From: an uncultured Candidatus Saccharibacteria bacterium | Lineage (GTDB): Bacteria; Patescibacteriota; Minisyncoccia; Phycocordibacterales; UBA9973 | Direction of reading: 5' to 3' | Assembly: GCA_964502615.1 (NCBI GenBank) | Contig: CAZCXF010000004.1 | Coordinates: forward strand, 7,199-71,198 | Length of the DNA: 64,000 nt | Shown here: piece after piece, positions 4,557-61,761 of the stretch | How positions within the stretch are numbered: the stretch's first letter is position 1 | Layout of the letters: each line of letters opens with the position of its first letter | Translations under genes and position numbers: made by a program | The notes under the pieces: model-generated | The model's database searches: none | What the model was told of the DNA's origin: nothing | Seen by the model: the letters and a program-made list of their open reading frames with translations, nothing else

Positions 4557-6793
4557 TAAACACTTGCATCTTCAAGATGTATTGAGAGGAGTTTGGAAGC
4601 TCCAGATGAATCCATTGTAACGCCAAAGAGAACCTGAGCTCGAGACATAGTCTCTCTGTTGTGAGTTACAACTACGAGCTGTGAATACTTTGATAAGTTC
4701 TCAAGCATATTCCCATATTTTCTAGAGTTTGCTTCGTCCAATGCAGCATCTGTCTCATCAAGAACAAGAAATGGAGGTGGGTTCACTTGAGATATAGCAA
4801 ACAGAAGCGCAATGGAAGCAAGGGATCTCTCCCCTCCAGAGAGCATGTGTAAATCTTTTACCTTTTTATGTGGAAGGGTTACATTTATCTCAATTCCCCT
4901 TTCAAAACCGAGCTCTTCTTCCTCCTCAGTTTCTTCTTCGTCTTCTTCGTCACGTACTCTTGATTTTCTATGTTCCATTACGACAGAAAGAAAGGCAGAT
5001 CCCCCACCAAACATAAGAGAGAAGAAATCTTGAAACTGCTTATTAATTTTTTCAACACCATATTTAAATTCGGTATCAAGTTTTTCTTTTAACTCAGCAA
5101 TTAACAATCTACAATCCTCAACACCTTTAGTTAAATCTATAATTTCACGAGCAAGGAATTGATCTCTCTCTTCAGCTTCTTGATATTCTTTCAAAACATT
5201 AGCTCCGCTTCCAGAACCAATATCTTCTAATTTAATCTTTATACGCTCAATTTTACGTCTTAGTTCCTCTTGAAGAGGTCGCGCAACTTCTTCGCTAACC
5301 TCTATATCCATATAAGAAGTAACCTCATGTCCTATTAGGACTTTCGCTTCTTCTAGTTCCATAAGAAATGCATTATTAACCATGCTTAACTTCTCTTCTT
5401 CAAAAGACAATGAATGCATGGAAGATGTGGCTACGTTTTTATGTCCAAGAAGTTCATATAATACTCGTTCACCTTCTCTTAGGCTCAACTCCATATCTTT
5501 CTCTTTCTCTCGTAGATTAGAAATTACGGATAATATTGATTCTTCTTTTTTAGTTATATTTTGGAGTTCAGAGACAATAGACTCTTTGACTCCTTTCATT
5601 TCTTCATATTCTTTCTCTATTTTTTCATCTACTTTATCGGAAGTACCTAAACTATTGAGACTTTTAATTTTTTGCTTTAATTCTTTCAAAATATTAGTTA
5701 TATCACCAATATTTTCAAGTTGTAATGCGTGATCAATACGTTCACTAATATGATCAATTATTGAATACCACTCAGAGGCTGGTATTGTCTTTTGTTCTTG
5801 TTCTTCTGCACGATTTATCTCTCTTTCAATTCCTTCAATAACTCCTTCTATACGACCGAGCTTGCGGACAAGTTCATCTTTTTGTCTACGTAAATCTAAT
5901 AGTTTTGACTCCTCATCTTTTATTTGATTTGAATATTCATTTTCAATACTATTGTTATTTTTCTCTTTTTTTACTGCTTCAATATTACTATCAATCGATT
6001 GAATTTGTTTCTCTAGATCGTGCCTAAGATCCTTTAACCTTTTTGATTCTTTTTTTATATAGAAATTTTCAGCAGAAAAATAATTTTTATATAGTCCTTT
6101 TAAATCTTCACGCATTTCGCGAGCTTTCTCAATAACTTGTACTTGTTTCTTTAAAAAAGCCAGATGCGGTGTAAGCTCACGCCTTGAAGCTTGTACTTCT
6201 TTCATGTTTATAATTGTTTTATCAAGCTTTCTTTCTGATTCGCGAATACGGTATTGGTAGACTTTCAATCCAAGCGCATCTTCTATCATTGCACGTCTAT
6301 CTTTATTTGAAGCATTTAGAACTCTATCAGCTTCTCCTTGTGAAATTATATGATGGCCTGAGCTTCCAATATTGACCGAAGCAAGAAGATCTATTACGTC
6401 TTTAAGACGAACTTCTGTATCATTTATACTATACACATTGCCACCATCTGTAAAAACTTCACGTGATATTGAAACTTCATCATAATCAAGTGATACACCT
6501 AAACCACTATTTGAAAAAGAAAAAATTTTTTTACTATTATCAAAAGTTATTGTTACCTTGGCGTGGTTTGCAGAAGGCATAGCTTTTGAACCTTTAAAGA
6601 TAAGATCTATTCCTCCCTTGCCACGCAAAGATTTCATTGATTGCTCTCCTAACACAAAACGTATAGCCTCTACAATATTGGACTTTCCAGATCCATTCGG
6701 TCCAACAACAGCTGTTATAGGAGTAGTAAATTGCACGGAACTTTTCCGTCCAAAAGATTTAAAACCTATGAGTTCTATGGACTTAAGAGTCAT
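4547..6793 (-). CDS. smc: SMC-family chromosome segregation ATPase, shortened to 748 aa
   Basis: N-terminal Walker A 'VVGPNGSGKSNIVEAIRFVLGEQS'. Long coiled coil. C-terminal signature 'LSGGERSLASIALLFAI' and Walker B 'FLVLDETDAALD'. Confidence 0.8.
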   Translation of the reverse strand: MTLKSIELIGFKSFGRKSSVQFTTPITAVVGPNGSGKSNIVEAIRFVLGEQSMKSLRGKGGIDLIFKGSKAMPSANHAKVTITFDNSKKIFSFSNSGLGVSLDYDEVSISREVFTDGGNVYSINDTEVRLKDVIDLLASVNIGSSGHHIISQGEADRVLNASNKDRRAMIEDALGLKVYQYRIRESERKLDKTIINMKEVQASRRELTPHLAFLKKQVQVIEKAREMREDLKGLYKNYFSAENFYIKKESKRLKDLRHDLEKQIQSIDSNIEAVKKEKNNNSIENEYSNQIKDEESKLLDLRRQKDELVRKLGRIEGVIEGIEREINRAEEQEQKTIPASEWYSIIDHISERIDHALQLENIGDITNILKELKQKIKSLNSLGTSDKVDEKIEKEYEEMKGVKESIVSELQNITKKEESILSVISNLREKEKDMELSLREGERVLYELLGHKNVATSSMHSLSFEEEKLSMVNNAFLMELEEAKVLIGHEVTSYMDIEVSEEVARPLQEELRRKIERIKIKLEDIGSGSGANVLKEYQEAEERDQFLAREIIDLTKGVEDCRLLIAELKEKLDTEFKYGVEKINKQFQDFFSLMFGGGSAFLSVVMEHRKSRVRDEEDEEETEEEEELGFERGIEINVTLPHKKVKDLHMLSGGERSLASIALLFAISQVNPPPFLVLDETDAALDEANSRKYGNMLENLSKYSQLVVVTHNRETMSRAQVLFGVTMDSSGASKLLSIHLEDASVYAK

Positions 6794-31762: not shown

Positions 31763-34700
31763 TTAGGTTGTTGTTGGTGGCGGAGTGTTGTCAGCTGGTG
31801 GTGGGTTACTACCTCCATCTGTTGGTGGTTGCGTATTGTCAGCTGGTGGTGGGTTACTACCTCCATCTGTTGGTGGTTGCGTATTGTCAGCTGGTGGTGG
31901 GTTGTTACTGCCTCCATCTGTTGGTGGCGGATTTGTTGGAACTGGATCAGGAGTAAGGCCTGTTTCCTCTAAGATACTTTCAAATATTTTTGGGTCTTTT
32001 ACTGAAAATACTGTCCATGAGAATCTTATATCTCTATTCGGTGTTTTATTCAAAAGTATTGTGAACCCTGTTTGGTCTTTATCGACTACTATATATCTTA
32101 TATCTTCTCCAAACAAACTCGCTGCGGCACTATCATCAACATTGTCATCTTTTTCAAAAGTCATAGATGCGTTTACAACTGGAGTTGAAATATATGGCTT
32201 ATCAAATACTATTTTTGCTCTCCTGTCCCCTGCTTTTATGAGTGCATAACCAGCAGTATCTTTATTAAACAATGGCGGTAATGAAAATTCCGCTTGCTTG
32301 CTGAAAACAACATCACCATCAAATGTTGTTGTATTGGAGAAGAAGGATAAGCCATTAAATTTCGCTTGACCTGCAAATGAACTATCACCTGTAACTGAGA
32401 GCATATTCATTGTAAATCCATTTACATTTCCATCGGCATCTTTAGTCAAGAAACTTTCGATAACTTTTAGCCTTGTATCGAGGTCTGTTCCACTTGTTGT
32501 AAGCCCTGCGATAGTAGTACTTGCAGTAGTAAGATCTTCTTGCAATTTTTTAATATCTGCTTGAGCAATAGTCAAAGCACTAGATAGTGTATTCATACCC
32601 TCCGCAGTTAGAGTAAAGGCTTGTTGTCCCTCAGCAAGAGAATTAATCTGATCGGTAATTGCTTGTACTCCGGATATATCTCCCAATTTAATATCGTGTG
32701 CTGTGACAGTACCTTTAAATGTTGCATTGCCAAGACTATCAAATACGATAGCTGGATTTACACTATTTGAAGTATTTGTACCATCTTTAGTACCTATTAT
32801 AAACTTACCATTTTCGTTTAGTATTAGATTTATATCATCACCCGTAGCAGATTTGAGAGTATTTGTTGCAAGTACATCCGTCGTAATTTTTGGAGTTATT
32901 ATTTCAACTGCAGCAACTAGCCTATCTGCATATAAGTCAGACATGTCTAGTGTATTTGCATTAGGATCTACCGTTGGACCTGGAGCAGTGCGTGATGCGA
33001 CAACATCGCTTAACAATTTAGCAAGAACTTTTTGACCAAATTCCTGTTTATCAGCAACTGGGGCTTCTGGAGTATTTGGTGTATCACCTGTATTTGGAGT
33101 AAGACCACTTAGTAGAGTAGAGTCTTCAGTTATAGATTCCAACTTCTGACCGTTGTAGTATCCAGGTTGAACGAACAATATAACCACACCCATACGATCT
33201 GGATCAACATTTGGATCATCAACTGCAGGATTCCAACCAGTCAAAGCTTGACCTATAACATGACCTGCTTTTGTAGCCTTCATAGCCCAGCCTGGATGCG
33301 AGGATGTTGTAAGATAATCACCTGGTTTGATAATACCATTCATAGCAGATACTTTTACTGGAACACGTCCAGCCAAGGCAAGGACAACACTCTTTGCTCC
33401 TTGTCTTAGCATTCCTGAACCCATCACCATATCTGGTTGAGTTGATATAACTCCAGCAACATTAGAATCGTATTTTTTACTACTCATTTTTACACCGGCT
33501 TCAAGATCAGGATCAAATGATACGACATCAGCAGCTTCAATAAGTGGATCATTAGTTGCATAAAATTCTCCGAGGTCGGCACCAGATGCTCCACGAATTT
33601 CAATAATACGTACTTCTCCACGGCCTCCGTTACCTCCAGCACCTCCGGTAACTCCAGGACCTCCACCTCCTCCACCACCACCAGGATTTCCTCCGTTACC
33701 TCCAGCACCTCCAACTCCAGCAGCAGCATTGTTCGCTCCTCCTCCACCTCCTCCGTATCCAGCAGTACCAGTAGAGTTTGCATCTGCAGAGTTTGCACCA
33801 TTTCCTCCAGCTCCTGCTGCGGCTCCTCCTCCAGCTCCTCCTCCTCCAGCAACCCAGTTTTGAGTTCCTCCAGATTTTCCTCCAGCTCCTCCTGCTGATG
33901 CAGCGTTGTTTCCAAGAACTTGTCCTCCAGCTCCTCCTCCACCTCCTCCCCATATTGAAGTTCCTCCAGCTCCTCCTGTAACAAGAGCAGCGTTGTTTGA
34001 TCCAGCAGTTGAACCTCCTCCACCTCCTCCGTATATTGCAGAACCTCCGGCACCAGCGGCAGTGTTTGTAGCTGTACCTCCTCCACCTCCTCCGAATTGA
34101 CCTCCGGATGCGTTAGCAGCACCTCCGTTTGGACCTCCTCCAGTACCTCCAGTTGCAGATGGAGAGTTTGAACCGACAGCGCCAGTACCTCCTCCACCTC
34201 CTCCACCAGACCCAGCAGCAGCTATACCTCCCTTACCTCCTCTACCTCCACCATAAGCTTCAATAAATACAGTTGATGTAGCAGAACAAGCCGCATTTAC
34301 AGAGACACATGCAGTATCTCCAGCAGTACCGTTTGTAGCACTTGCACCTCCAGTCACAGCTGCAGGAGCTTGAACGTTTACAGCAGATGAAGTAAAGTTT
34401 GCACCATCAAATGTTTTTGTAACATATGCTCCTCCTCCACCTCCTGAACCTCCCATACGAGGGTTTGCTACTGCAGCTGCCTGTCCTCCACCTCCTGAAC
34501 CTCCTCCTCCGATTGCTTCAATAATCAAAGATTTAACACCTGCTTTTTTGGTGTAAGTAGTGTTTGAAGTAAATACGTTGTAGTTTACATCACCACAAGT
34601 TGCGACAGTGATAGTACCGTTTGTATCCATATTCATACAACCGTTTGCTGATGGTTTGTCAGGAAGAGTGATTGTATAGTCTGTAGTTATTGAAGCTGGT

Positions 34701-37700
34701 GCACTTATACTAACTGAATTTGTTCCGTTACCTGTATTTGTTTCAAACATTCTTACACCAACATCCCAACCAGCACCGATTGATATCGCACTTTCCGTTG
34801 CAGATGTACCTGTTATATTTGCAATTGTTAGACCATTGAATAAATCAGTAGAGCTTACTCCTGTAGATATTGGTGTGAATGCAAGATTTATACCAGATAT
34901 TGTTCCACCAGATGTCATGTCTCCTGCTTCCCAAGCAATAGAAAGTGCTTCTGTACTAGCTGTAACCATTCCAGTTGTTCCACCGGTAAGATCTATTTTC
35001 ATTGCATCGGCTGTTGGAATAGTTCCATTTGTTGTATTTTCAATTGTAAATTGAGTATCTGCAGCATCTCCATATAGAAGGTTTAATCTGTCAGAAGCAG
35101 TTGTTTTATTTATCACGCCTGCTGATGAAGTAAATGATCCTGCTCCACCTCCAGTAGCATCAGTAGCACAACTCCAGACTGAAGTTGATTCAGTCCATTT
35201 TAATATTTCTCCGTCTGCACAACCTTGAAGCAAACCTATTGCTGTAGTATTTCCTACTTCAAGACCAGAACCGTTAGATGTAGAACCAGTACCGTCTGAA
35301 CTTGTCAGAGTAAGGGCTGTACTTGCATCGATTGTTCCTGCTGCAGTCGTAAGAGTTATATTACTTGAACCAGCTTGAATAGTACCTTGGGTATCCAAGT
35401 TACCACTAGTTGCAACTGTAAAGTTTGTAAAGCCAATCAAATTTGTACCAGCCGTTGTTCCCCCGATAACTGTATCCCAACCAGAACCAACTCTAATAGC
35501 AGTTTCTGTCGCAGTTCCAGCAGTTATACCTCCTATGTCCAATCCTATTTGAGTTCCAGCAGAACCAGAAGAAGCTCCGTTTATCAGTATTCCTGTAGAT
35601 GAAACAACAGAAGTAGAAGCAGTATTATTTACTCTTAATCCATTCCAAGTACAGGTCGCTCCACCAGTACACGCAGTAAATGTTGGTGCACCCACATTTA
35701 TAGCATTGAGTGTTTTTACCCCTGAAGTTGCATTGGTTGTGTTGAAATTTGAATCAATATTAATACCATTTGTAGTTGAAGTAAGTGCACCTCCTGTTGC
35801 CGAACCATTACTTACTGAAAGGTTAACAAGGCTTCCTGTCTGACCATTTGCATGACTATATGTTGCACCAGAGACATTGATTGCCCCTCCGGTGGTAAGT
35901 GTTCCATTAGAAATTCCGACATCGAGAGCATACCCAGTAGTGAGGTTGTTAGCAGAGATTGATTGCACTTTACCTGAACTTGCACTGTTTGCAGTTATAT
36001 TGAATATTCCTGTACCAGTGTAAACACCAGTATTTGTAATTCCAAGGTTTGTACCTGTAGTTGCATTAGAATCTATATCAAAGAGTGCATCTGGAGTAGT
36101 ATCAGCTATACCGACATTTCCAGAAGTATCAATTGTAAGAGGAACTATTCCACCAAATGGATAATAAATAAAGAATTTACTAGCAAGACTGAGGGCTGTT
36201 TCATTTGTATTTCCCACTCCAATGCTCCACTCCTGTCCACCCGCGATTGCCATTTGAGTATATCCATTTGTTGCGGTAGATGTATTTAGAATTTTAGTAA
36301 CAGGAGTATAAGCAGCACCATCATTTGTGAAATATCCAGCAAAATTATTATTACCTCCAGTAGCCTGACCATATACTCCGTAATTGTCTGCTCCACCACT
36401 TGATGCGTTACCATATACACCGATATTTACCGGAGTTCCGGCGGTTCTCGTATGACTATTGTCGAAATATCCAGCGTAAGTCGTAATTGTAGTCCCAACG
36501 TTACCAGCCAAAGTTACACTTAATCCTTTTTGTCCGTTTGCAGCAGTAGTTCCGTTTGAAGAAAGTGATAGCAATGATCCTGATGTAAGCCCATTCCCTG
36601 TAATACTTGCAAGCGTACCAGTTGTTGCAGAGTTAGCAGTAAGATTAAATATCCCAGTTCCTGTATAGACACCAGTGTTCGTGATGCCGAGATCAGCACC
36701 GGTTGTATTTGTGGTGTTGAGTGTTACAACATCATTTGCTGTTGTTGCTGAGAGTGTTGTACCAGAACGTGACCAATATCCGATAGCACCAGATGTAGGA
36801 GCAGTTGTAGTGAGAGTTCCGTTACCACCTGAAGTATATAGTGGACCGTTAGAGGTTAGAGCTGAGAATTGAATTGTTCCAGAAGATATAATACCGGCTG
36901 CTGAAGCAATAGCCCCAGAAGAGTTGACTTGGAATTCAGATCCTGGGCCTACAGTAAATAATGAGTTCGGACTAATATCACCTCCAATATTTAAATTATT
37001 ACTTGTGTCTATATATATAGATGTTCCTGCATTAGAACCTATCTGTACTGGATAATTACCTGATGAACCAAACATTGATCCGCCTCCATCAGCATAAATA
37101 TATGCTTCGGCATTTGTACTTGCATCACGAACTGAAATTGAAGAGGAACCATTATTTTGGAAAATTGCTAATTCAGTACTTGCTATGTCTGATACATCAT
37201 TACCTGCACCGACATGGAGTTTATATTGAGGAGCTGTATTAGCTATACCCACATTCCCCGCATTAAATATAGCCGCATAATTATTATCCGCACCTGATGC
37301 TGTTGCGTATAGACCAATCGCAGTTGATGCTCCCGCAGTATCTCCTGTCGCTGCGAAATATCCACCGTAAGTATTTACTGTTCCTGCAGCTGTTCGGCCT
37401 GTGTTGTCTGCCGTGTTGTATGAACCATATAAAGTATAAGTACCAGTTGCAGTATCTGCACCTGTTTTTGAGGCGTTGTTATAGATACCATATGCTGTCT
37501 GACTTACTGATGCCCCTGCAACTACAGCAGAAGATGTCCAGAAATTTTGAAGTCCGTATGATGCAGTGAGTGCACCTGTTCCTGTTTGTGTGGTTGAGAA
37601 TCGTGCTCCAGGTACAAAATCACTGCTAGATGTTGCGTTTAGTCTTAACACACCACTTGAACTTGAAGCTGTCGCATTTGTAAATGTAAACCCGCTAGTA

Positions 37701-40700
37701 CTTGAAGTTGTAAATTCAGCATTTCCTGCAACAGTAAGAGCGCTTGTTGCACTAGTAGTTTGTATGCCAACATTTCCTGCTTTATCAATTATAAATGGAC
37801 TACTATCTGTATATGTACCATCATCATTCACTCGAAATGCTAGAGCATTGGTACCAGTTTGCGCAGTTGTAACATTAAGTGTTGTACCCTCTCCACCTGC
37901 AGCACCAAGTAGTCCGAGTTTAAGCGCAGTACCATCGACATCAACATCAGCATTGTTGTATTCTATCTTTGCAAGGTCTCCTGTCCAAGAAGTTCCCGGT
38001 GCACCTGTTGCAGAAATATTAAGAAGTCCACCAGTTGTAAATGCTGTTGAAGTCGAAGTGAGATTAAATAATGTACCAGTCGTCAAAGCATTTGCTGTCC
38101 AGGTAAATGGATTCTGTGTTGAAGCAGTAGACCAATCCCATTGTTGTGCATAGTTTGTGTTGTCGATTGTATTTGTACCAGTTGCAAGAGTAATGGTATT
38201 GAGTGAAGTACTTCCTGCTCCTCCACAAGCACCAGCTGAAATGAGTCCAACGTTATCAGTCTTTATACACTGAGTTCCTCCACCTCCATAAAACGGTGCA
38301 GTAATTTGTCCATTATAATCAATTGCAAACTTAGAAGTTGCATTATTTTTAATATTCAGAAGATTCCCTCCTGTTTGTGCACCTGATGTATCAAATTTAT
38401 ATGCATCACCGGAACCAGAAGCAGTGATACTTGCAGAGAGAGTGTTGTAACCAATAGTAAGATTATTTGAAGCTATAGAATATGAACTTGTTCCGTAAAC
38501 ACCTCCAGCCACAGCTAGATTCTTGTTTATAATAACAATGTCTGCGGAACTATATACTATGTTTGCATCAGAAACACCGATTGTTGACGTATCATTTCTA
38601 GCAATATTTATTCCACCTGGACCTGCAGATATTAAACCATTTGATGATGCAATTTTTGCTTTCACAACACCACTTGCAGTTGAGTAAAAATCTCCAGCTT
38701 GATCTGTATCCCCTGTCACTTGAAGTTTGTAGGCACCAAGATCAGAAGTTGAACCGATTTGAAGTTCACCAGCAGTATTAAATCTTCCTCCTTCGTTAGG
38801 GCTGTCGAAGGAATCATCGTAATAAAAATACAGAGCTCCAGAATTACCACCGCCAATACCTGCAAAAGTATTATTTCCTCCGTTAAGGAACAATATACTA
38901 TCTGTACTAACTCGAGCACCCCCAGATCCACCACCATTTGCATTTAGACGTATTACTCCACCAGCTATATTTATATTACTTGAAGAAGCCCAGACAGAGT
39001 CACCACCTGATGAGTACAATGATCCAATTGTCCCTGTACCGAAATCTGTTTGACCTGTGATTTTAGTATTTCCAGTAACTTGCAGTGCATATGTACCAAG
39101 ATCAGTCATTGAACCAATTTGGAGTTCGCCAGCAGAGTTTATTCTCATTCTCTCTCCTGCAGTTCCGGTCGAGAATGCAAGGGTATTTGCTCCAGGACTC
39201 CAAATACCTGTATCTAAATCTCCGTTAAATGTATATGAGGGTGCAGTAGTTCCTCCAAGCTGGTTAGCAATAACTCCTGTTTGGGTAATATATAAACCAG
39301 AACCATTCTGTAATGTAAGATTAGTAGTGTCTAGAGTAACTGGAATTGTAAATAATACATGATTTGCACCTGAAATGGTAGCTCCGGCACTTGCATTTCC
39401 TGTAATACTTAAATATATAGGATCATTGCGAAGTAAAATAGAAACACCGCCTGTTTCAGTCCCTGCTACTTTGAAATAACTTCGCGTGCCATCACTAACA
39501 TCAAGTATTCCTGTTGGAGTTGCTGTACCAATTCCTACCCTCCCTCCCATAAACGCTGCCGCATATGTTGTATCTGCAGTGTTGGCGGTTGTAGCGTCGA
39601 CATAAAGACCGGTGACAGTGTTAGCAAGTGAGCCAGCATCGGTAAATGAAATATGTTGGCCATAGAGAGTGTCTGCATTTGTTGCTTGGTTGTTTGTGAG
39701 AGCAAGTTTTTCTCCATAATATGTCTCTGATGCTGCAGAGCCAGAAACTGTCACAGTGTTTAAGAATCCAGATGAACCAGTTGTAGTAATAGCGGAACTA
39801 GTGAGAGCAAGTGGTGCACCAGTTGCTGCGTTAGTAGAGATAGTTACAATATCGTTAGCGGTGGCAGGAGAAAGTGTGGTGCCACTTCTTGACCAGTATC
39901 CGATCGCGCCAGAGGTTGGGGCAGTAGATGTAAGATTTTTTGAGCCGTCTGTATAAACAGCAGAAGAAGCAGTGAGACCAGAGACATTTAATGAATCGAC
40001 AATTGCGTTGCCTGTGACTTGAAGCTTAAATGTTCCAAGGTCAGAGGTTGATCCGATTTGTACTTCTCCTGTCTGGAAAATATGTCTCGTAATACTACTG
40101 TTACCATACGCAGCAGTATTAGAACCAAAGCCGGTGGTGTTATAGCCGAGTACTATTTCGTTGGTATCCCCATCTGCTAGAGCTTTGGTGCTTGCTCCTA
40201 AATAAACAGATGTGTTAGAGGTCTGGTTTGAAGTTGAGCCATCTGCAATAACTCCTCCGGCAAAATACCCTAGAGCGGCATTATAGTAACCTGAGGTGTT
40301 TCTTTCGAGAGCATAGATTCCAAAGGCTGAGTTGGAATAACCTGTGTCGTTAAGTTTGAGAGCATACATTCCAAAAGCTGAGTTGGAATAACCTGTGGTA
40401 TTGGTGGTGAGAGCTTGGACTCCGAAACCAGAATTATAATAGCCGGTAGTATCGGAATTGAGCACTTGGACTCCGAAACCTGAATTATTTGAGGCCTGAT
40501 ATGTTGCTGTCGCTGTGCTTCCCATTGTCAAATTACCGGCACTTAATCCTACAAAAGTATTACTACCGTTTGGTCTTGCGCCACCTCCAGTTGGATGCCT
40601 GTAGTTATGAATAAAAGGTGTTCCATCTTTATAGATAATTCCATTTGAAGCATTAGTGTCTGTTTGTTGATCTGCTATTCTAAAATTACCTGTGATTTCT

Positions 40701-43093
40701 AGTTGAGCTTGTGGTGTTGCTGTACCAATCCCCACATTACCTTGATCGAAAATCGCAGCGTAATTACCACCAGTTGCACCAGATGCAGTTGAGTAAAGAC
40801 CGACGTTGACTGCACTTGCACCAGTTCGTGTATTTGAAAAATATCCACCATATGTAGTTTGTGCACCAGTAAGCGCACCAGTGAGTGCAACATTTAATCC
40901 TTTTTGCCCGGTAGTTGCGGCGGCACTCGATGAAGTTAGGGAGAGAATATTTCCAGAAGTTGCTGAATTAGCAGTTATCAATCCAGCGTTGCCTGTTGTC
41001 GCTCCAGATGTAGTTAAAAAATCACCGTTGTTATCAACTTGAAATTGAGAAGAGGAACCTACAGAGAATAAATTAGTTGGGCTTACTGTACCTACACCAA
41101 CACTACCTCCACCAGAAGGAACTACGATTGCATAGTTATTATCAGCTCCTGTTGCTGTTGCGTACAAACCATAAGCTGTTCCTGCAGGGGCAGTTGCTGA
41201 AAAATATCCTCCGTAAACATTTGGCCCACCTCCTGTTCCTGTGGCTGTTCCGTAAATAGCATATTGAGTATTGTTACTTGCAGAAGTACTACTATACAAA
41301 CCGTAATTTATAGCACCAGTACCGTCATGACCATTTGAAATGTAAGCTCCGTAACTTGAAACAGAACTAGTAGCATTAGTTCCGGTAAGAGCAATATTTA
41401 ACCCTTTCTGATTTGTAGCAGCTGCTGTTCCACTTGAAGAAATATTTAAAAGTGACCCAGATGTTAGTGTTGAAGAAGCTAAATACATACCAGTTCCAGA
41501 AGTGAGTGAATTAAAGTTTCCAGCAAATGCAGAAGTTGTTGTCGTACCTGTTGTCACTCCAGAGTTGATAGTAAATGTTCCTGCACCTGCGAGAGTATTT
41601 GTTAATGATTGACCAGATGTTGGAGCAAATGTTATAGCGCCAGTGTCGAGGAATGATGCAATGGCTGTACCGTTGTCTTGGATTAATAAATCTCCAGTTG
41701 ATGCCAGATTAAATTTTATATCAGCAGTACCATTTGAAGTTACTCGTAGTGGTGAGGCAGTAGAAGTTGCGAGTGTTGAGATATCTACTAGTGATTGGTT
41801 TCCAGCACCATTTGCAGCTGCAGTGGTTTCACCAAAAGTAAATGCTGTTTTTGCTGCTGTAGTTAGTGCCCAGTTCCAAACAATTGCATTGTCACCGTTA
41901 CCAATTGTTGCAGTTGTGTTTGCTGCGGCGACATTGTTAAGCGGAACTGTGAAAGATGATGATGCAATCTTCTCGACTACTCCAGTAGAAGTGTTACGTG
42001 TTAGAACTTCATATCCACCAGCAGACGCTGAAGGTGAGGTTGCTAGAGTTAGTATTCCAGTACTTCCAATTCGAAGCTTTTCACTCACAGCTGTACCTCC
42101 ACTTTGTGTTAGAAAAATCAAGTCACCACTTTCTGAGCCTGCTGTGTTTCCAAGATTAGTAATCTGAATACTTGCTCTTGCTATTTGCCTTGTACCATTG
42201 GCAGCTGAGAATAGCAAACCATTCGAATTTGAATTAGTCATGAAAATACCACTGTTACCAGCTGTATTGCCTCCGTTACCGAAGTAGAAAGGATATGAAA
42301 GATCAGAGCCAGCATTAGTGAGTCTGAGTAGAACAGTAGTATTACCTTGGTTATTTATTTGATTGGTAACAGTAAGGACACCGTTGGCTTGAATATAGTT
42401 TGAGAACGTCTTATCTCCAGCGAATGTCTGTGTTCCTGTTGTAACTACACCGCCAAACGATGCAGATGCTGGTTCAAGATTAAGAACTGAGCCTGTAATT
42501 GTAGCGCCGTTTGCATTCGGAGATGATCCAATTGCAGAAAGTGTTGTTACTCCTGTTGCAGTTGATCCTTCAATTATGTTTCCAGTTGAATCTACTTGCA
42601 AAGCAAAAGTCGGAGTACCAGTAAACGTACCAGCTCCGTATTGTGCGAGTTTAAACTTACCACTGTTCAAAAATCTTCCGACTTCTGTCGCACCGTTGTT
42701 TCCAGTTTTGAAAATAATATCTGCACCAGTTGTACCAACTCCAGAAGTTGATTTGAAAGTTAGTGTATCTGTAGTACCAGTACCTCCGATCAAAGTTGAT
42801 CCACCAGATAGACCGATATTGTTTGCAATGAGTGTAGCGTTAACAGTTGGACCAGTGTAAGTAACAAGTGAACCTGCGTCGTTGAACTGAAGGTGTCCGT
42901 CACCAATCTCAGCCCATGGGTGACCAGGGTTTGGAGTAGTAGCTGTTACGATACCAACGATTGAGAAAGCGAGGAATAGGAAAAGTACTGAGTAGACAGC
43001 ATAGTGAAGAGAAAATCTAGGGTGAATTTTCTTCGCAATTTTTGTTAGAAATCGTATGTATTTTTGATTGTTGTTTTCGGACATAAAATACAA
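31763..43093 (-). CDS. Giant (3776 aa) N-terminally anchored Thr/Gly/Ser/Ala/Asn-rich beta-repeat surface protein, with tail-fibre-like G-N-V-G-I-G-T-x-x-P motifs, a poly-Gly region, a conserved globular domain and a C-terminal Pro-rich repeat
   Basis: Single uninterrupted 11.3 kb ORF. N-terminal TM 'VYSVLFLFLAFSIVGIVTA'. Recurring 'GNVGIGTATPQAQLEI' / 'GRVGIGTATPTGILDV' motifs and internal duplications ('TAPTSGAIGYWSRSGTTLS' twice). Gly-rich GGGGxGG block. C-terminal 'PPTDGGSNPPPADNTQ' x3. Confidence 0.7.
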   Translation of the reverse strand: MYFMSENNNQKYIRFLTKIAKKIHPRFSLHYAVYSVLFLFLAFSIVGIVTATTPNPGHPWAEIGDGHLQFNDAGSLVTYTGPTVNATLIANNIGLSGGSTLIGGTGTTDTLTFKSTSGVGTTGADIIFKTGNNGATEVGRFLNSGKFKLAQYGAGTFTGTPTFALQVDSTGNIIEGSTATGVTTLSAIGSSPNANGATITGSVLNLEPASASFGGVVTTGTQTFAGDKTFSNYIQANGVLTVTNQINNQGNTTVLLRLTNAGSDLSYPFYFGNGGNTAGNSGIFMTNSNSNGLLFSAANGTRQIARASIQITNLGNTAGSESGDLIFLTQSGGTAVSEKLRIGSTGILTLATSPSASAGGYEVLTRNTSTGVVEKIASSSFTVPLNNVAAANTTATIGNGDNAIVWNWALTTAAKTAFTFGETTAAANGAGNQSLVDISTLATSTASPLRVTSNGTADIKFNLASTGDLLIQDNGTAIASFLDTGAITFAPTSGQSLTNTLAGAGTFTINSGVTTGTTTTSAFAGNFNSLTSGTGMYLASSTLTSGSLLNISSSGTAAATNQKGLNIALTGTNATSSVSSYGAYISNGHDGTGAINYGLYSSTSASNNTQYAIYGTATGTGGGPNVYGGYFSATAPAGTAYGLYATATGADNNYAIVVPSGGGSVGVGTVSPTNLFSVGSSSQFQVDNNGDFLTTSGATTGNAGLITANSATSGNILSLTSSSAAATTGQKGLNVALTGALTGAQTTYGGYFSNTRTGASAVNVGLYSTASGATGGNYAAIFDQGNVGIGTATPQAQLEITGNFRIADQQTDTNASNGIIYKDGTPFIHNYRHPTGGGARPNGSNTFVGLSAGNLTMGSTATATYQASNNSGFGVQVLNSDTTGYYNSGFGVQALTTNTTGYSNSAFGMYALKLNDTGYSNSAFGIYALERNTSGYYNAALGYFAGGVIADGSTSNQTSNTSVYLGASTKALADGDTNEIVLGYNTTGFGSNTAAYGNSSITRHIFQTGEVQIGSTSDLGTFKLQVTGNAIVDSLNVSGLTASSAVYTDGSKNLTSTAPTSGAIGYWSRSGTTLSPATANDIVTISTNAATGAPLALTSSAITTTGSSGFLNTVTVSGSAASETYYGEKLALTNNQATNADTLYGQHISFTDAGSLANTVTGLYVDATTANTADTTYAAAFMGGRVGIGTATPTGILDVSDGTRSYFKVAGTETGGVSILLRNDPIYLSITGNASAGATISGANHVLFTIPVTLDTTNLTLQNGSGLYITQTGVIANQLGGTTAPSYTFNGDLDTGIWSPGANTLAFSTGTAGERMRINSAGELQIGSMTDLGTYALQVTGNTKITGQTDFGTGTIGSLYSSGGDSVWASSSNINIAGGVIRLNANGGGSGGARVSTDSILFLNGGNNTFAGIGGGNSGALYFYYDDSFDSPNEGGRFNTAGELQIGSTSDLGAYKLQVTGDTDQAGDFYSTASGVVKAKIASSNGLISAGPGGINIARNDTSTIGVSDANIVYSSADIVIINKNLAVAGGVYGTSSYSIASNNLTIGYNTLSASITASGSGDAYKFDTSGAQTGGNLLNIKNNATSKFAIDYNGQITAPFYGGGGTQCIKTDNVGLISAGACGGAGSTSLNTITLATGTNTIDNTNYAQQWDWSTASTQNPFTWTANALTTGTLFNLTSTSTAFTTGGLLNISATGAPGTSWTGDLAKIEYNNADVDVDGTALKLGLLGAAGGEGTTLNVTTAQTGTNALAFRVNDDGTYTDSSPFIIDKAGNVGIQTTSATSALTVAGNAEFTTSSTSGFTFTNATASSSSGVLRLNATSSSDFVPGARFSTTQTGTGALTASYGLQNFWTSSAVVAGASVSQTAYGIYNNASKTGADTATGTYTLYGSYNTADNTGRTAAGTVNTYGGYFAATGDTAGASTAIGLYATASGADNNYAAIFNAGNVGIANTAPQYKLHVGAGNDVSDIASTELAIFQNNGSSSISVRDASTNAEAYIYADGGGSMFGSSGNYPVQIGSNAGTSIYIDTSNNLNIGGDISPNSLFTVGPGSEFQVNSSGAIASAAGIISSGTIQFSALTSNGPLYTSGGNGTLTTTAPTSGAIGYWSRSGTTLSATTANDVVTLNTTNTTGADLGITNTGVYTGTGIFNLTANSATTGTLASITGNGLTSGSLLSLSSNGTTAANGQKGLSVTLAGNVGTTITTYAGYFDNSHTRTAGTPVNIGVYGNASSGGADNYGVYGQATGGNNNFAGYFTNDGAAYTPVTKILNTSTATNGYTQMAIAGGQEWSIGVGNTNETALSLASKFFIYYPFGGIVPLTIDTSGNVGIADTTPDALFDIDSNATTGTNLGITNTGVYTGTGIFNITANSASSGKVQSISANNLTTGYALDVGISNGTLTTGGAINVSGATYSHANGQTGSLVNLSVSNGSATGGALTSTTNGINIDSNFNTTNATSGVKTLNAINVGAPTFTACTGGATCTWNGLRVNNTASTSVVSSTGILINGASSGSAGTQIGLDIGGITAGTATETAIRVGSGWDTVIGGTTAGTNLIGFTNFTVATSGNLDTQGTIQAGSSNITLTTAAGTIDASTALTLTSSDGTGSTSNGSGLEVGNTTAIGLLQGCADGEILKWTESTSVWSCATDATGGGAGSFTSSAGVINKTTASDRLNLLYGDAADTQFTIENTTNGTIPTADAMKIDLTGGTTGMVTASTEALSIAWEAGDMTSGGTISGINLAFTPISTGVSSTDLFNGLTIANITGTSATESAISIGAGWDVGVRMFETNTGNGTNSVSISAPASITTDYTITLPDKPSANGCMNMDTNGTITVATCGDVNYNVFTSNTTYTKKAGVKSLIIEAIGGGGSGGGGQAAAVANPRMGGSGGGGGAYVTKTFDGANFTSSAVNVQAPAAVTGGASATNGTAGDTACVSVNAACSATSTVFIEAYGGGRGGKGGIAAAGSGGGGGGGTGAVGSNSPSATGGTGGGPNGGAANASGGQFGGGGGGTATNTAAGAGGSAIYGGGGGGSTAGSNNAALVTGGAGGTSIWGGGGGGAGGQVLGNNAASAGGAGGKSGGTQNWVAGGGGAGGGAAAGAGGNGANSADANSTGTAGYGGGGGGANNAAAGVGGAGGNGGNPGGGGGGGGPGVTGGAGGNGGRGEVRIIEIRGASGADLGEFYATNDPLIEAADVVSFDPDLEAGVKMSSKKYDSNVAGVISTQPDMVMGSGMLRQGAKSVVLALAGRVPVKVSAMNGIIKPGDYLTTSSHPGWAMKATKAGHVIGQALTGWNPAVDDPNVDPDRMGVVILFVQPGYYNGQKLESITEDSTLLSGLTPNTGDTPNTPEAPVADKQEFGQKVLAKLLSDVVASRTAPGPTVDPNANTLDMSDLYADRLVAAVEIITPKITTDVLATNTLKSATGDDINLILNENGKFIIGTKDGTNTSNSVNPAIVFDSLGNATFKGTVTAHDIKLGDISGVQAITDQINSLAEGQQAFTLTAEGMNTLSSALTIAQADIKKLQEDLTTASTTIAGLTTSGTDLDTRLKVIESFLTKDADGNVNGFTMNMLSVTGDSSFAGQAKFNGLSFFSNTTTFDGDVVFSKQAEFSLPPLFNKDTAGYALIKAGDRRAKIVFDKPYISTPVVNASMTFEKDDNVDDSAAASLFGEDIRYIVVDKDQTGFTILLNKTPNRDIRFSWTVFSVKDPKIFESILEETGLTPDPVPTNPPPTDGGSNNPPPADNTQPPTDGGSNPPPADNTQPPTDGGSNPPPADNTPPPTTT
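31787..31930. repeat. 48-bp perfect tandem DNA repeat (x3) at the 3' end of the giant gene, encoding PPTDGGSNPPPADNTQ
   Basis: 'TTGTCAGCTGGTGGTGGGTTACTACCTCCATCTGTTGGTGGTTGCGTA' repeated head-to-tail. Confidence 0.8.
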
Positions 43094-43328: not shown

Positions 43329-45185
43329 TTACCTAACAACATAACCGAGTGAAGATAATTTTTCAGTTATTTTTGACATAATTAGATTTATTTCTTCAGT
43401 GGTGAGAGTGCGATCGTATGACTGGAAAATTAGTCGGAACGCATAAGAAACTTTATCATCCTTTTTGAAAGTATCTACTAAAATCGGATCTTTGATTAGG
43501 AGTTCAGTTCCAAATTCATGATAAATTTTTGCAAGTTCATCAGCAGAAACATTTTCTGGCACCCAAACAGCAATATCACGAGTTGCAAAAGGATACAAAC
43601 TCCACATTTTGAAATAATTCATAGCGGAGGTAGGTAATACTTTTTCTGAGTCGGCGTCGGAGCCCCCGGAGAGAGGGTTAAGACGCGAAGAGAGAGTATT
43701 ATCTACCGTAGATCCGAGAATTTGAAGAAAACTTTCTTCAAATTCATCCAATTTCATTTCTTTTATTTCTTTTTTATTTGCAAATCCTACGTGTACTTCT
43801 TCCCCATTTTTGGTAAATACTGTTCCAATTTCAAATATTTTTATTTCATTTAAATTTAAATATGGAGCATTTAATTTATTTAATTCATAAGATTCTTTTA
43901 ATCCGTCTGTCAGATTGGTCCTTAAGAATTTTTTATCCGAAGCTGAAGCTAAAACTTCAACTACCCCAGTATTAGCAAATGCATAAGTCATGACCTCAAG
44001 ATAGCCATTTGATGCTAAAATTTCTCGTGCTTTTGAGATTTTTTGGTATGTTTCATTTTCTTTTAAATCTACTTTAATCCTTGGTAATACTGGCTTTATT
44101 TTGTCATAGCCTATTATACGAGCTATTTCTTCGGCCATATCTTCCCGGTTTGTAAGATCTAGCCGCATTGGGGGTATAGATACAGAAAAGTTATCTTCTG
44201 ATTTTGTAAAATCAAATTTATATCGTTTCAAAATGTCTTCAATTTCACTATCTGATATCTTAAGACCCAATAAATTTTCTATATATTTTTTTGAGAATTC
44301 TAAGTTATGGCTTTCTTGTTTTTTAGGATATACATCTACAATTTCTTCAAATGTCGCTTCTGGAAAAAGTTCAATCAGCAGTGCAGATAATGCAAACATA
44401 CCAAAATCACAAAGCTCTGGTGACAAATCATTTTCAAATCTTTTTGCAGAATCCGATAGTTGTCCGATTCTTCTTGCAGTTTTTCTGACTGATGTTGGAT
44501 TAAAGTTTGCAACTTCAAGAACAATATCAGTTGTTGTATCACTTATCCCAGATTCATGTCCTCCTTTTACTCCACCGAGTGCAAGATTAATTCCACCAGA
44601 AGTAATGACTAAATCATTTTCTTTTAGTTTGGCAGTTACTCCTTCTCTACCGACAAGTTTTAATTCATCACCTTCTTTTGCATTTGTTATTTTTATTTTC
44701 TCATATACAATTTTTTGTAAATCAAATGCGTGAGTTGGTTGACCACAATCATACATGACAATGTTTGTGGCATCCACGATATTATTTATACTTCTCTGTC
44801 CTATAGATTCTAGGTGTTTTACCATCCACTCTGGTGATGGGCCAACTTTTATATTGCGAACTATTCGAGCACTGTATCTCCTACAATTCTCTGTTTCTAT
44901 TTCGACTTTTAGATTTGTAGGTTTTGAAGCTGGAGTCTTATACATAGGGGTAGGATCTTTGAATTCTATTCCCAAGAGTCCAGATAGCTCACGAGCGACA
45001 CCTTGATGGGAAAGCAAATCATGCGCACGGTTTGGCAAAATTCCAAGATCAAAGAGAAAATCCCCGTCTGGTAATTTTTCAACTGATTCAACTTCGCAGA
45101 GATGGTAGGTAAAAATATCTGCCAAACGATTTGGTTCTGGAATTTCTGGCACATATGCTTTTAACCAATTGTAAGAAATTTTCAT
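43329..45185 (-). CDS. pheT: Phenylalanyl-tRNA synthetase beta subunit, shortened to 618 aa
   Basis: 'MKISYNWLKAYVPE' PheT N-terminus. B3/4 and B5 domains. Confidence 0.85.
   Translation of the reverse strand: MKISYNWLKAYVPEIPEPNRLADIFTYHLCEVESVEKLPDGDFLFDLGILPNRAHDLLSHQGVARELSGLLGIEFKDPTPMYKTPASKPTNLKVEIETENCRRYSARIVRNIKVGPSPEWMVKHLESIGQRSINNIVDATNIVMYDCGQPTHAFDLQKIVYEKIKITNAKEGDELKLVGREGVTAKLKENDLVITSGGINLALGGVKGGHESGISDTTTDIVLEVANFNPTSVRKTARRIGQLSDSAKRFENDLSPELCDFGMFALSALLIELFPEATFEEIVDVYPKKQESHNLEFSKKYIENLLGLKISDSEIEDILKRYKFDFTKSEDNFSVSIPPMRLDLTNREDMAEEIARIIGYDKIKPVLPRIKVDLKENETYQKISKAREILASNGYLEVMTYAFANTGVVEVLASASDKKFLRTNLTDGLKESYELNKLNAPYLNLNEIKIFEIGTVFTKNGEEVHVGFANKKEIKEMKLDEFEESFLQILGSTVDNTLSSRLNPLSGGSDADSEKVLPTSAMNYFKMWSLYPFATRDIAVWVPENVSADELAKIYHEFGTELLIKDPILVDTFKKDDKVSYAFRLIFQSYDRTLTTEEINLIMSKITEKLSSLGYVVR
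43629..43707 (-). mobile_element. Copy A of a 63-bp-core palindromic repeat inserted in-frame in pheT; adds '…PLSGGSDADSEKV…' to the protein
   Basis: Core ATACTTTTTCTGAGTCGGCGTCGGAGCCCCCGGAGAGAGGGTTAAGACGCGAAGAGAGAGTAT is near-identical to 46097-46159. Flanked by complementary arms. Confidence 0.55.
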
Positions 45186-45188
45186 AAA

Positions 45189-45584
45189 TTATTTTGACAC
45201 TACTATTAACCCAGAAACAACTGGTGCGACAATGTGAAACCATGGGTGGAATTTTTTATAATTACCAAATTTAAATCCATACCAGAAAAATATTCCTGTT
45301 AATGAAAGTGCAATAGTAAGTGGAACTTGGAATTGATTATTTACTTTAGTAAAAATAAAATAATACATGTAGATATAAGCACCAACTGCAAAAAACCAAT
45401 CAAAATCTCTTATTGCATGAAGTAATTTTGTTCTCTTGGAATTATTCTCTCTTAAATAATGAAAGATGGGTGAGAAAATACTAATTCCTAGCGCAAAGAA
45501 AAAATACAACCACTCATGTACTATTGCGGAAGCTATGACTGGAATGAATAGAAAAATATTGGATGTGATTATAAATTTCTTCAT
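45189..45584 (-). CDS. Hypothetical 4-TM membrane protein between pheT and pheS
   Basis: 131 aa and hydrophobic. No homology recognised. Confidence 0.4.
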   Translation of the reverse strand: MKKFIITSNIFLFIPVIASAIVHEWLYFFFALGISIFSPIFHYLRENNSKRTKLLHAIRDFDWFFAVGAYIYMYYFIFTKVNNQFQVPLTIALSLTGIFFWYGFKFGNYKKFHPWFHIVAPVVSGLIVVSK

Positions 45585-45587
45585 AGA

Positions 45588-46364
45588 TTAAAATTGGTTC
45601 AATCGTAAATCACCCTGATAAAATAAGCGTACATCTGGAATATTCCAACGTATCATAGCAATACGATCAAGTCCTCCGCCGAACGCAAACCCTTGAACTT
45701 TTTCTGGATCAAGTCCAGCATTACGAAGAACATTTGGATGAATCATTCCTCCACCCATCATCTCAAGCCATTTGCCGTTGAATTTGGCGTGTACTTCTAC
45801 AGATGGTTCTGTGAACGGGAAGAAACTTGGACGAAATTCAATCTCAATATCCTCCCCCAATGCTTTTTTATAAAACTCTACTAGTACTGCTTTCATATGA
45901 GAGAGATTTACATTCTCACCGATCATACATCCATCAATCTGAAAAAATTGCATTTCGTGAGTGATATCTGTCGCTTCATTTCGAAAAACTTTTCCGATTG
46001 ATATTGATGCAATTTCTTTGATTCCTTCTTTTGCTGCACGTTCGAGAGTTCGCGCGGTAACATTTGTCGCATGCGTCCTCATAACATAGCTAGCGGATAC
46101 TTTTTCTGAGTCAGCGTCGGAGCCCCCGGAGAGAGGGTAAAGATGCGAAGAAAAAGTATCCGCTAGTTTTGTTTTTATATAAAAAGTATCCTGCATATCA
46201 CGAGCAGGGTGATCTTTAGGTACATTGAGTGCGTCGAAATTATACCAAGTCGTTTCAAGTTCGGGGCCTTGTGCTATTTCAAAACCAAGTTTTCCAAACA
46301 CTTCGTATGCTTCATTTTGTAGAATTGTTAGTGGGTGTAAGCTCCCTTTCTGGAATTCTCGCAT
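45588..46364 (-). CDS. pheS: Phenylalanyl-tRNA synthetase alpha subunit, catalytic core only (258 aa, no N-terminal helical arm)
   Basis: 'KDHPARDMQDTFYI', 'MRTHATNV' and class II motifs 2/3 'FRPSFFPFTEPS' / 'GFAFGGGLDRIAM'. Confidence 0.85.
   Translation of the reverse strand: MREFQKGSLHPLTILQNEAYEVFGKLGFEIAQGPELETTWYNFDALNVPKDHPARDMQDTFYIKTKLADTFSSHLYPLSGGSDADSEKVSASYVMRTHATNVTARTLERAAKEGIKEIASISIGKVFRNEATDITHEMQFFQIDGCMIGENVNLSHMKAVLVEFYKKALGEDIEIEFRPSFFPFTEPSVEVHAKFNGKWLEMMGGGMIHPNVLRNAGLDPEKVQGFAFGGGLDRIAMIRWNIPDVRLFYQGDLRLNQF
46091..46165 (-). mobile_element. Copy B of the same palindromic repeat (75 bp = 25 codons, perfect 15-bp terminal inverted repeats TAGCGGATACTTTTT / AAAAAGTATCCGCTA) inserted in-frame in pheS
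   Basis: Shares the 63-bp core with copy A at 60/63 identity. Same orientation and reading frame. Encodes 'PLSGGSDADSEKV' between the conserved DTFY and RTH motifs of PheS. Confidence 0.55.
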
Positions 46365-55345: not shown

Positions 55346-55432
55346 CAGAGGGTAGGAGATTCGAACTCCTGAGACCCTTTCGAGCCTACTACCTTTCCAA
55401 GGTAGCGCACTAGACCGCTATGCGAACCCTCT
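55346..55432 (-). tRNA. tRNA-Ser (anticodon GGA), long variable arm, CCA not encoded
   Basis: Manual fold: acceptor AGAGGGT/ACCCTCT, anticodon stem CTACC/GGTAG with loop TTGGAAA, T-arm AGGAG-TTCGAAT-CTCCT, and an 18-nt variable arm. Confidence 0.75.
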
Positions 55433-61239: not shown

Positions 61240-61761
61240 CTATCGGGTTTTAAGGAAATATGCAACCAAGAAGCCCAAGGCATATCCGCCAATAATATCA
61301 AGGGGGAAATGCACTCCAGAGACCACCCTAGATAGCCCTATTAACACCATTGCCAAGAAACAAATATATCCTAATCTCTTATTTTTAAAGAAAACTGCAA
61401 AAGCAAAGGCAGCAATAGTTGCAGAGTGCCCTGACGGAAAAGCATACCCACTTTCTGGAATAAGCGTATGCACATTACTCATAGCGACAAAAGGGCGATC
61501 TGATTGTATTAATAATTTCAATAAATTAGCCAATATATAACCTGAAACTGTGGTAACAGCTATAACAATAACCATTCTAGATTTTCGATATATTGATTTT
61601 AAGTTAAAATCATCAAAAATATGGCTTTGCAATAATAAAATAGCTGTTACCACAACAATAAATATATAAATAAAAGGCTCAGCAAAAAATATAACCAGAG
61701 AATCAAACCAATTAGATTGGAAAGCAAAGCTATGTAGAAATATAAAAATGGAACTATTCAT
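61240..61761 (-). CDS. PAP2-family phosphatase (undecaprenyl-diphosphate phosphatase-like)
   Basis: 'KLLIQSDRPF', 'PSGHSATIAAFAF', 'SRVVSGVHFPLDII' PAP2 motifs. Confidence 0.8.
   Translation of the reverse strand: MNSSIFIFLHSFAFQSNWFDSLVIFFAEPFIYIFIVVVTAILLLQSHIFDDFNLKSIYRKSRMVIVIAVTTVSGYILANLLKLLIQSDRPFVAMSNVHTLIPESGYAFPSGHSATIAAFAFAVFFKNKRLGYICFLAMVLIGLSRVVSGVHFPLDIIGGYALGFLVAYFLKTR

Follow-up and report, generated by a model that had tools for sequence, protein, structure and literature searches.

Rickettsia palindromic elements (RPEs) are inserted in frame into unrelated housekeeping genes at positions compatible with the fold of the encoded protein (PMC10969869), and bacterial transposable elements of the miniature inverted-repeat type (MITEs) occasionally create in-frame fusions (PMC2229807). 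Here, a hairpin element with comparable behaviour, referred to as family 1, is described in a 64-kb window (the whole stretch of DNA that was analysed) of an A+T-rich (35% G+C) genome of the Patescibacteria, or Candidate Phyla Radiation (CPR), whose closest relatives among the loci retrieved (given below as L numbers) are labelled Candidatus Paceibacteria (L019). Two copies, A and B, lie within pheT and pheS, the genes for the beta and alpha subunits of phenylalanyl-tRNA synthetase (PheRS). We consider family 1 to be a small, non-autonomous, structure-dependent mobile hairpin element of CPR genomes and an analogue of the RPEs, and assign to this reading a probability of about 0.8. The literature covered, which is incomplete so that a prior description is possible, contained no description of such elements in CPR bacteria.

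Both host genes were identified from their open reading frames (ORFs) and Pfam matches and lie on the minus strand: pheT (43329-45185) encodes 618 aa with the domains B3_4, B5, tRNA_synthFbeta (residues 363-463) and FDX-ACB (529-616), and pheS (45588-46364) encodes a short-form subunit of 258 aa (tRNA-synt_2d, E 1.4e-84). The elements themselves, delimited by sequence, folding and a covariance model of the family (R1), occupy the plus strand and are antisense to their hosts, with copy A at 43620-43707 (78.4 bits, E 2.8e-15) and copy B at 46086-46166 (81 nt; 86.2 bits, E 3.7e-17); they are 2.46 kb apart and are the only family-1 copies that R1 finds in the 64 kb. A first-pass annotation of this DNA had reported two near-identical copies in the same orientation, and both points hold: exactly two matches to the 25-mer GCGTCGGAGCCCCCGGAGAGAGGGT are present in the window, at positions 43654 and 46114 and both on the plus strand (0 expected from 100 shuffles), and an 81-nt direct repeat (43619-43699 and 46079-46159) is 85% identical. 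Identity over the shared 63-nt part is 58/63, slightly below the 60/63 given before, and its G+C content, 54% and 48% in the two copies as compared with 35% for the window, bears out the G+C-rich core noted then.

Copy B consists of the tail ATAG and a 77-nt hairpin whose arms (46090-46107 and 46149-46166; in pheS, CTAGCGGATACTTTTTCT and AGAAAAAGTATCCGCTAG) are perfectly complementary over 18 nt, and not over the 15 nt first described, and extend to 25 nt at 92%. Copy A has the 5' tail CATAGCGGA and arms at 43629-43647 and 43689-43707, and its minus strand encodes ...VDNTLSSRLNPLSGGSDADSEKVLPTSAM. The apex of copy A (43650-43688), defined from conserved columns and the PheS-site copies, comprises an inner helix GCGTC/GACGC followed by TCGGA-GCCC...GGGT-TAAG; by comparison, that of copy B (46110-46148) reads AGCGTC/GATGCG and TCGGA-GCCC...GGGT-AAAG. 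The five differences between A and B are all neutral with respect to structure: one compensatory change of a G:C to an A:T pair (43653/43684 and 46113/46144), two A-to-G changes giving T:G pairs, one more A-to-G change in the 3' arm, and one A-or-T loop position that is also A or T across family 1.

Both copies are in frame with their host ORFs and, as first stated, encode the same 13-aa peptide, PLSGGSDADSEKV; tryptic peptides predicted for the inserts include LNPLSGGSDADSEK (PheT) and LADTFSSHLYPLSGGSDADSEK (PheS). PheS homologues (7999 in total) were inspected for length and sequence in the 120 listed, most of which are 231-234 aa long, lack the insert and read IK-EKPDQ-VLRTH at this place. 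At the DNA level, the site is empty in the orthologue of L026 (85% identical PheS; IKEKPDQVLRTH), relative to which 81 nt of the window (46086-46166), corresponding to 27 aa (L67-Y93), are extra or replaced. The insert is likewise absent from the solved Staphylococcus haemolyticus PheS (2rhq), to which residues 2-65 and 93-255 were aligned by phmmer with residues 66-92 skipped, and the earlier element lengths of 63 and 75 nt are corrected by these two comparisons. The insert lies in the loop between DTFY and V(L/M)RTH and, in the AlphaFold2 model, residues 67-90 have a predicted local distance difference test score (pLDDT) <50 and no secondary structure and are placed between two strands; a disordered surface loop is predicted here, in agreement with the tolerant loop proposed at first. 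In PheT, the insert (approximately residues 494-522) falls in the linker that separates the catalytic-like module, whose Pfam match ends at residue 463, from FDX-ACB, the anticodon-binding domain (from 529). Both inserts are most likely transcribed and translated as disordered peptides within PheS and PheT.

PheS and the catalytic-like module of PheT are anciently homologous, and a weak Pfam cross-hit between the modules was obtained, so the first-pass description of the two proteins as non-homologous was mistaken. This ancient homology is inadequate to explain the repeat, because the copies share 92% DNA identity at non-equivalent positions. The pheS sequence, element included, is identical in six further independent assemblies (JGI, Logan), which excludes an assembly error.

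To survey family 1 more widely, the apex 20-mer CGGAGCCCCCGGAGAGAGGG was searched against contigs of one genome per species from GTDB (596 Gb; about one chance match expected). It was recovered at 25 loci, coding and intergenic and all in Patescibacteria metagenome-assembled genomes (MAGs; labelled Saccharibacteria, Paceibacteria, Giovannonibacteria or 'Patescibacteria group') that have a maximum of four copies each, and gave 0 matches in viral contigs. A family-1 set of 29 copies was compiled, including two orthologous PheS copies. A metagenome scan with PheS returned relatives of at most 74% identity, none with the family-1 core, and a profile of six 40-aa peptide segments, searched for other host proteins, returned 22 candidates, none of them significant.

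Approximately 20 of the 29 copies are within long ORFs, roughly half in the sense and half in the antisense orientation, and at least four reading frames are used (RVGAPGERVKR, SEPPERGLSA, NPLSGGSD and LPSLRGLRH); all ORF-embedded copies keep the frame and contain no stop codon. Stop-free frames number 2.9 per 80-nt hairpin (2.0 after shuffling) and 3.1 in ORF-embedded copies. The host genes, assigned by sequence inspection, include glycosyltransferases, MurB, LigA, a phosphohexomutase, ArgS, UvrC, a Mur ligase, UvrA, LeuS (two genomes, same site), TsaD, a CCA/HD enzyme, IleS, PheT and PheS. Copies outside ORFs occupy short gaps between distinct co-directional genes (NusG|L11, DnaB|RecR, FtsQ-like|Dus, RuvX|tRNA-binding protein) and do not interrupt split genes. 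Over the whole set, sense and antisense copies are equally frequent with respect to transcription (about 14 of each).

Copies cluster by genome and not by site. Stem identity averages 0.61 within genomes and 0.39 between genomes (p = 2e-5), and the stems of the window's pheT and pheS copies are more alike (0.79) than those of the window's pheS copy and its orthologue in L027 (0.71); copies A and B are each other's closest relatives, and a local jump or copying inside the genome is their probable origin. MAGs of different lineages, L016 and L020, carry family 1 at the same LeuS position and in the same frame (RVGAPGERVKR), each with the kind of stem that is typical of its genome. The L020 LeuS copy resembles other copies in its own genome and not the L016 LeuS copy, and either independent hits or within-genome homogenisation fits this pair. 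The presence of copies at 25 loci in unrelated genes, the empty orthologous sites and the clustering by genome together uphold the first-pass proposal of an inserted repeat rather than shared ancestry.

Each copy of family 1 is a long hairpin of approximately 80-95 nt. In a gapless alignment of the outer stem, 17 of 17 pairs were found changed on both sides, and 89% of outer-stem cells were paired, as compared with 63% after shuffling and 33-50% when the partner columns were slid. No stem column exceeds 76% identity; the arms pair within a copy and differ between copies, and so are not conserved termini, for which reason the earlier label of terminal inverted repeats was dropped. Inside the basal stem, usually an A/T-rich run (AAAAT/ATTTT), often a GAG bulge, and a G+C helix of 3-5 bp lead to the conserved apex (UCGGA, GCCC, a variable loop, GGGU and WAAG). 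Many copies also have, close to the base, a symmetric internal loop of purine-rich GAA/GAA sequence (5' GAAGC ... GCGAA 3'), of which the window copies retain only the 5' half (ATAGC). Beyond this loop, closing pairs fell short of significance (p = 0.06, some motifs being mis-assigned).

Conservation of the apex extends to copies and columns independent of the search pattern. Columns outside the 20-mer that are at least 90% conserved (alignment A3) are G35, G37, T38, T59, A61, A62 and G63. All seven PheS-site copies collected by protein homology keep TCG(G/A)A-GCCC...GGGT-(A/T)AA(G/A) around apical loops that read CGGAGAGA, CGTAGAGA, CGCAGAGA and TGCACAGA, or a short G-CTTG-C extension (L117, L118), and two diverged copies found with the covariance model have the same pattern of conserved apex and variable loop. 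Two family-1 copies each are present in L002 (170-261 and 328-423) and L015 (2013-2108 and 7030-7130); the stems of the diverged second L015 copy are near those of another copy, as is best seen against L017. The apical loop is exchangeable while the CCC/GGG helix is kept, because L015:7030-7130 and L002:170-261 each have a different apical loop (CCCACCCGTACTCGGGAAGGG and GCCCCTTTGGGG, respectively). Two candidate interpretations of the hairpin were rejected. The internal loop of the apex was inspected as a kink-turn or loop-E motif, and its sequences fit neither consensus. The outer stem was considered as an inverted copy of the target, for which, in pheT, a resemblance at 5/8 positions between TATCTACC and the family-2 sequence TATGGACA (see below) is suggestive; this idea was discarded as unsupported, given the closing pairs just mentioned, and for pheS its frame arithmetic fails (63 + 7 nt, not divisible by 3).

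The two strands of the element are not equivalent. In 26 of 29 copies, the strand that carries GGAGCCCCC is the better-folding one (mean -56.5 kcal/mol over the set, and -48.4 for the complement), and G:T pairs in the stems number 66 (49 if the conserved inner U-G is left out) as compared with 3 A·C 1x1 mismatches. Folding of the window copies, which was among the checks first proposed, gave stable hairpins, with -47.0 kcal/mol for the plus strand and -32.6 for the mRNA strand of copy A, and -47.7 and -39.8 for those of copy B; the better-folding strand is antisense to both pheS and pheT. The even orientation relative to transcription, the lack of any bias relative to GC skew (see below) and this strand asymmetry indicate that the constraint belongs to the element and therefore not to the host mRNA.

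In relatives of the window, the PheS loop holds different elements, all antisense to pheS. Family 1 is present there in three subfamilies, with stems ATACTTTTTCT (subfamily a; window and L027), AGAATCAG (subfamily b; L028 and L117-L119) and GGCACAG (subfamily c; L120), and its peptides in relatives read PLSGGSD or LPSLRGLRH; between orthologous copies of subfamily b, the stem changes are fully compensated, as in L117, where CAG/CTG has become TAT/ATA. L029 instead carries an element of another family at this site (family 3; core TGTCTGGTGAACCTACCCGAGGAC, peptide GPRVGSPDTE) and L030 one of family 2 (core TCTGGCC...GGAGATCCGAGGAC, peptide ...SSDLL...GQT...), which is found in both pheS and pheT of L030 and L019. 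The PheT linker is similarly variable: it holds intact family-2 elements in L019, L026 and L111, and in L019 a family-1 copy in the sense orientation, opposite to that in the window, adjoins family 2. In the window, homology to these intact elements identifies a right-half remnant of family 2 (43708-43748, plus strand) directly beside copy A, consisting of GTAGATCCGAGAAT and the right arm TTGAAGAAAACTTTCTTCAAATTCATC, encoding DEFEESFLQILGS of PheT and forming a local hairpin at 43718-43745; copy A fills the place of the missing left half, a refinement of the first-pass description of the pheT copy. Because the PheS loop and the PheT linker vary in this way among relatives, elements appear to be gained, nested and replaced at permissive sites.

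A fourth hairpin family of approximately 100 nt was observed in the PheT linker of L027 (pheT at 865-2721) and L029 (pheT at 3772-5616), with arms GAGAATC.../...GATTCTC, core CACGGATATTTTTCTGCTGAAAAATTCC... and peptide ...EHGYFSAEKFL.... The pheT of L111 (4680-6518) is identical to that of the window (43329-45185) over its first ~1364 nt, as is its pheS over the whole gene; beyond that point, 144 aligned positions differ (gaps counted) and the gene downstream is another one. The pattern has the look of a recombination breakpoint situated just upstream of the hot spot for elements, and L111 was rejected as a pre-insertion allele, being a recombinant with family 2 in pheT.

RPE families are defined by a whole-length consensus, unlike family 1, in which the stem is free and covarying and only the apex is conserved. 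RPE-1 to RPE-10 resemble family 1 in being short palindromic repeats of reduced genomes that lie in frame in unrelated housekeeping ORFs where the protein fold tolerates them, are read through and have no known associated transposase (PMC10969869); family 1 differs in its host phylum (Patescibacteria), length (~80-95 nt as compared with ~100-150 nt) and much lower copy number. Membership in the RPE consensus families is very unlikely because all 25 genome loci belong to Patescibacteria, and the likeness is offered as an analogy only. Like bacterial MITEs (Correia/nemis, ERIC, RUP and BOX; reviewed by Delihas, PMC2229807), which are small, non-autonomous, stem-loop-forming and found between and sometimes within genes, family 1 is dispersed in multiple copies per genome (2 in the window, up to 4 per MAG). 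In MITEs, terminal inverted repeats are conserved and match a parent insertion sequence (IS), and target-site duplications are present; the termini of family 1 differ from copy to copy, a parent IS was not seen and, in the diverged orthologues compared, no duplication could be identified. Of the RPE- and MITE-like behaviour suggested at first, the in-frame insertion and the dispersal stand, and conserved terminal repeats of the MITE type do not.

Repetitive extragenic palindromes (REPs), the bacterial interspersed mosaic elements (BIMEs) that they form and their REP-associated tyrosine transposases (RAYTs, or TnpA-REP), including the GTAG/CGTC-tagged kind (PMC3733652), share with family 1 the dispersed imperfect palindromes, a hairpin on one strand thought to be recognised by an enzyme and strand-asymmetric pairing, and occur in low to high copy numbers. 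REPs are 20-40 nt long and extragenic, with a terminal tetranucleotide tag and a linked RAYT gene; family 1, in contrast, is 80-95 nt long and mostly intragenic with a conserved apex, CGTC is found inside some of its apexes while most read TGTC, and no RAYT gene was seen here, in a weak test. Integron attC sites are likewise recognised by structure, with a free stem sequence and conserved pairing, bulges and one active strand. Their conserved boxes are at the base and their apex is variable, the reverse of family 1, and they flank gene cassettes next to an integrase, whereas family 1 sits inside housekeeping genes with neither cassettes nor an integrase seen. Hairpins in organelle coding regions (sponge repetitive hairpin elements, PMC2800124; Nematomorpha palindromes, PMC6649704; yeast GC clusters; the translational bypassing elements called 'byps') are also G+C-rich and invade protein genes of A+T-rich, gene-dense genomes, but they are eukaryotic and unrelated in sequence, and some are bypassed by the ribosome rather than translated. 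No match to Rfam 15, including its small ribozymes, group I and II introns and HEARO, was obtained on the elements in the window and five loci, either at the gathering threshold or at E up to 10. Family 1 is not a member of the strict MITEs, the REPs, the attC sites or any Rfam family, and very probably not of the RPEs.

Under the proposed mechanism, the element would land anywhere and in either orientation, and the survivors would be those with a length that is a multiple of three and no stop codon, lying where an insertion is tolerated, in surface loops, in linkers or in short gaps between genes; such constraints would arise because CPR genomes are almost entirely coding and essential. The active form may be a single strand (single-stranded DNA or RNA) of the element strand, recognised through its shape and apex by a trans-acting enzyme. 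Recognition of this kind is suggested because the stems are free but paired, the apex and internal loops are conserved, and wobble pairs are tolerated on one strand only, a pattern resembling that of REP/RAYT, the ends of IS200/IS605 and integron attC. Mobility itself is inferred from sequence comparison, on evolutionary time scales, rather than observed, since a pair of filled and empty sites of near-identical sequence was not encountered. A broader and more doubtful proposal is that families 1-4 might together form an unrecognised class of structure-specified mobile elements, defined by a folded single strand with a free but covarying stem, purine-rich internal loops and a conserved apex instead of by terminal repeats, that would be moved by an enzyme acting on single-stranded DNA or RNA and would land in or replace existing hairpins. 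Such a preference would explain the repeated hits in the PheS and PheT loops, the family-2 remnant under the window's pheT copy and those few intergenic copies that crown terminator-like stems.

Several points weigh against a mobile element. A near-identical pair of filled and empty alleles was not found, the closest empty site being that of the 85%-identical orthologue, and protein clusters at 90% contained only filled variants or variants with a different element; no very recent insertion was found. Filled and empty sites could be compared only among diverged orthologues, in which no direct repeat is evident and no target-site duplication is definable. No transposase candidate emerged when 750 kb of retrieved DNA were searched by tblastn with an IS200 TnpA sequence, which is a weak test. 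Copies are few (2 in 64 kb; 1-4 per MAG with the exact core). The 20-mer owes its invariance in part to the search pattern, and independently found copies vary in the apical loop. Exchange of alleles between lineages by recombination could also lie behind the recurrence at the same sites, L111 being recombinant within pheT. Finally, orientation shows no bias relative to local GC skew (14 of 29 copies), so a mechanism coupled to single-stranded DNA at the replication fork receives no positive support. Signals of the DNA-uptake, dif or Chi type were also considered and were rejected on copy number.

A functional cis-acting signal in RNA or DNA, selected at each site as a terminator or attenuator, a site for an RNase or another protein, or an antisense small RNA, would account for the conservation of the apex motif and inner helix outside the search 20-mer, the compensatory changes even between the two window copies, the recurrent purine-rich internal loops and the intergenic copies that fill co-directional gaps or resemble bidirectional terminators (L017, L004). 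It is nonetheless unlikely given that orientation relative to transcription is even, the hosts are unrelated and close orthologues lack the element, the better-folding strand in the window is antisense to both mRNAs and no Rfam family was matched. The great stability of the hairpin (-33 to -48 kcal/mol) and the many insertions removed from CPR rRNA genes (PMC11270868) might instead point to an intervening sequence that is lost after transcription or translation, as a mini-intron, by ribosomal bypassing like that of a mitochondrial 'byp' or in the manner of an intein, with mature PheS and PheT lacking the peptide. Every ORF-embedded copy, however, keeps its frame without stops, which would be needless if the element were removed; copies outside ORFs lie between different genes and not in split genes; copies are found in both orientations, something that a splicing signal in RNA would not allow; and 27 aa is far below the size of an intein and no ribozyme or intron of Rfam was matched. 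We regard removal as very improbable.

Alternatively, selection could have favoured the peptide itself, for instance as a motif for interaction or localisation acquired by both PheRS subunits, with the DNA repeat as a by-product of gene conversion; the occurrence of one 13-aa peptide in both subunits of a single enzyme, and of one element family in both subunits of L030 and L019, speaks for this. Against this, the same DNA is read elsewhere in at least four frames to give unrelated peptides, relatives at the PheS site read PLSGGSD or LPSLRGLRH, conservation tracks nucleic-acid pairing and not codons, and the insert is predicted to be disordered, leaving this explanation scarcely credible. An assembly chimera, a library-preparation hairpin or contamination, for which only the general risk of metagenome assembly speaks, has a negligible probability in view of the identical pheS sequence in six independent assemblies from two sources, the related copies at 25 MAG loci from many studies and the intact reading frames. 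The observations that the first-pass annotation had named as ones that would weaken its case turned out the other way: family 1 has more copies, the peptide is absent from relatives and the independent assemblies are in accord. A mobile hairpin element thus remains our preferred reading of family 1.

Other features of the window were recorded. Between pheS and pheT, a hydrophobic 131-aa ORF without a Pfam match (45189-45584, minus strand) is present also in L026 and L111-L116 and absent from L027, L029 and L030, in which pheT directly follows pheS. Directly downstream of pheT lies a giant ORF of 3776 aa (31763-43093, minus strand) with long Gly/Ala/Thr/Ser-rich repeats, a poly-Gly region at ~33600-34500, a G+C content of ~42%, above that of the window, and, near its 3' end, three tandem 48-nt repeats (31772-31933; motif PPTDGGSNPPPADNTQ); L111 has a different gene of 1868 aa in its place. 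A perfect 15-nt inverted repeat (61549-61654; TGTGGTAACAGCTAT and ATAGCTGTTACCACA, arms 76 nt apart) sits in a 173-aa membrane-protein ORF (61240-61761, minus strand), where its arms encode VVTAI and IAVTTV, and could be due to chance or be another coding palindrome. The only match in the window at an Rfam gathering threshold is an 87-nt tRNA (55346-55432, minus strand), which indicates the type with a long variable arm.

Selfish DNA in protein loops was reportedly described for Rickettsia in 2000. As read here, family 1 would show that such DNA also persists in the tiny, gene-dense genomes of CPR bacteria by hiding in the loops of proteins, among them essential enzymes of DNA repair and of the cell wall and the products of five aminoacyl-tRNA synthetase genes. 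Together, the covariation of its stems, the conservation of its apex and the tolerance of wobbles on one strand point to mobilisation by a mechanism that recognises structure, and the covariance model R1 can be used to annotate further elements of the family. Family 1 would account for part of the unexplained lineage-specific insertions in CPR proteins, and cautions against calling such insertions adaptive.

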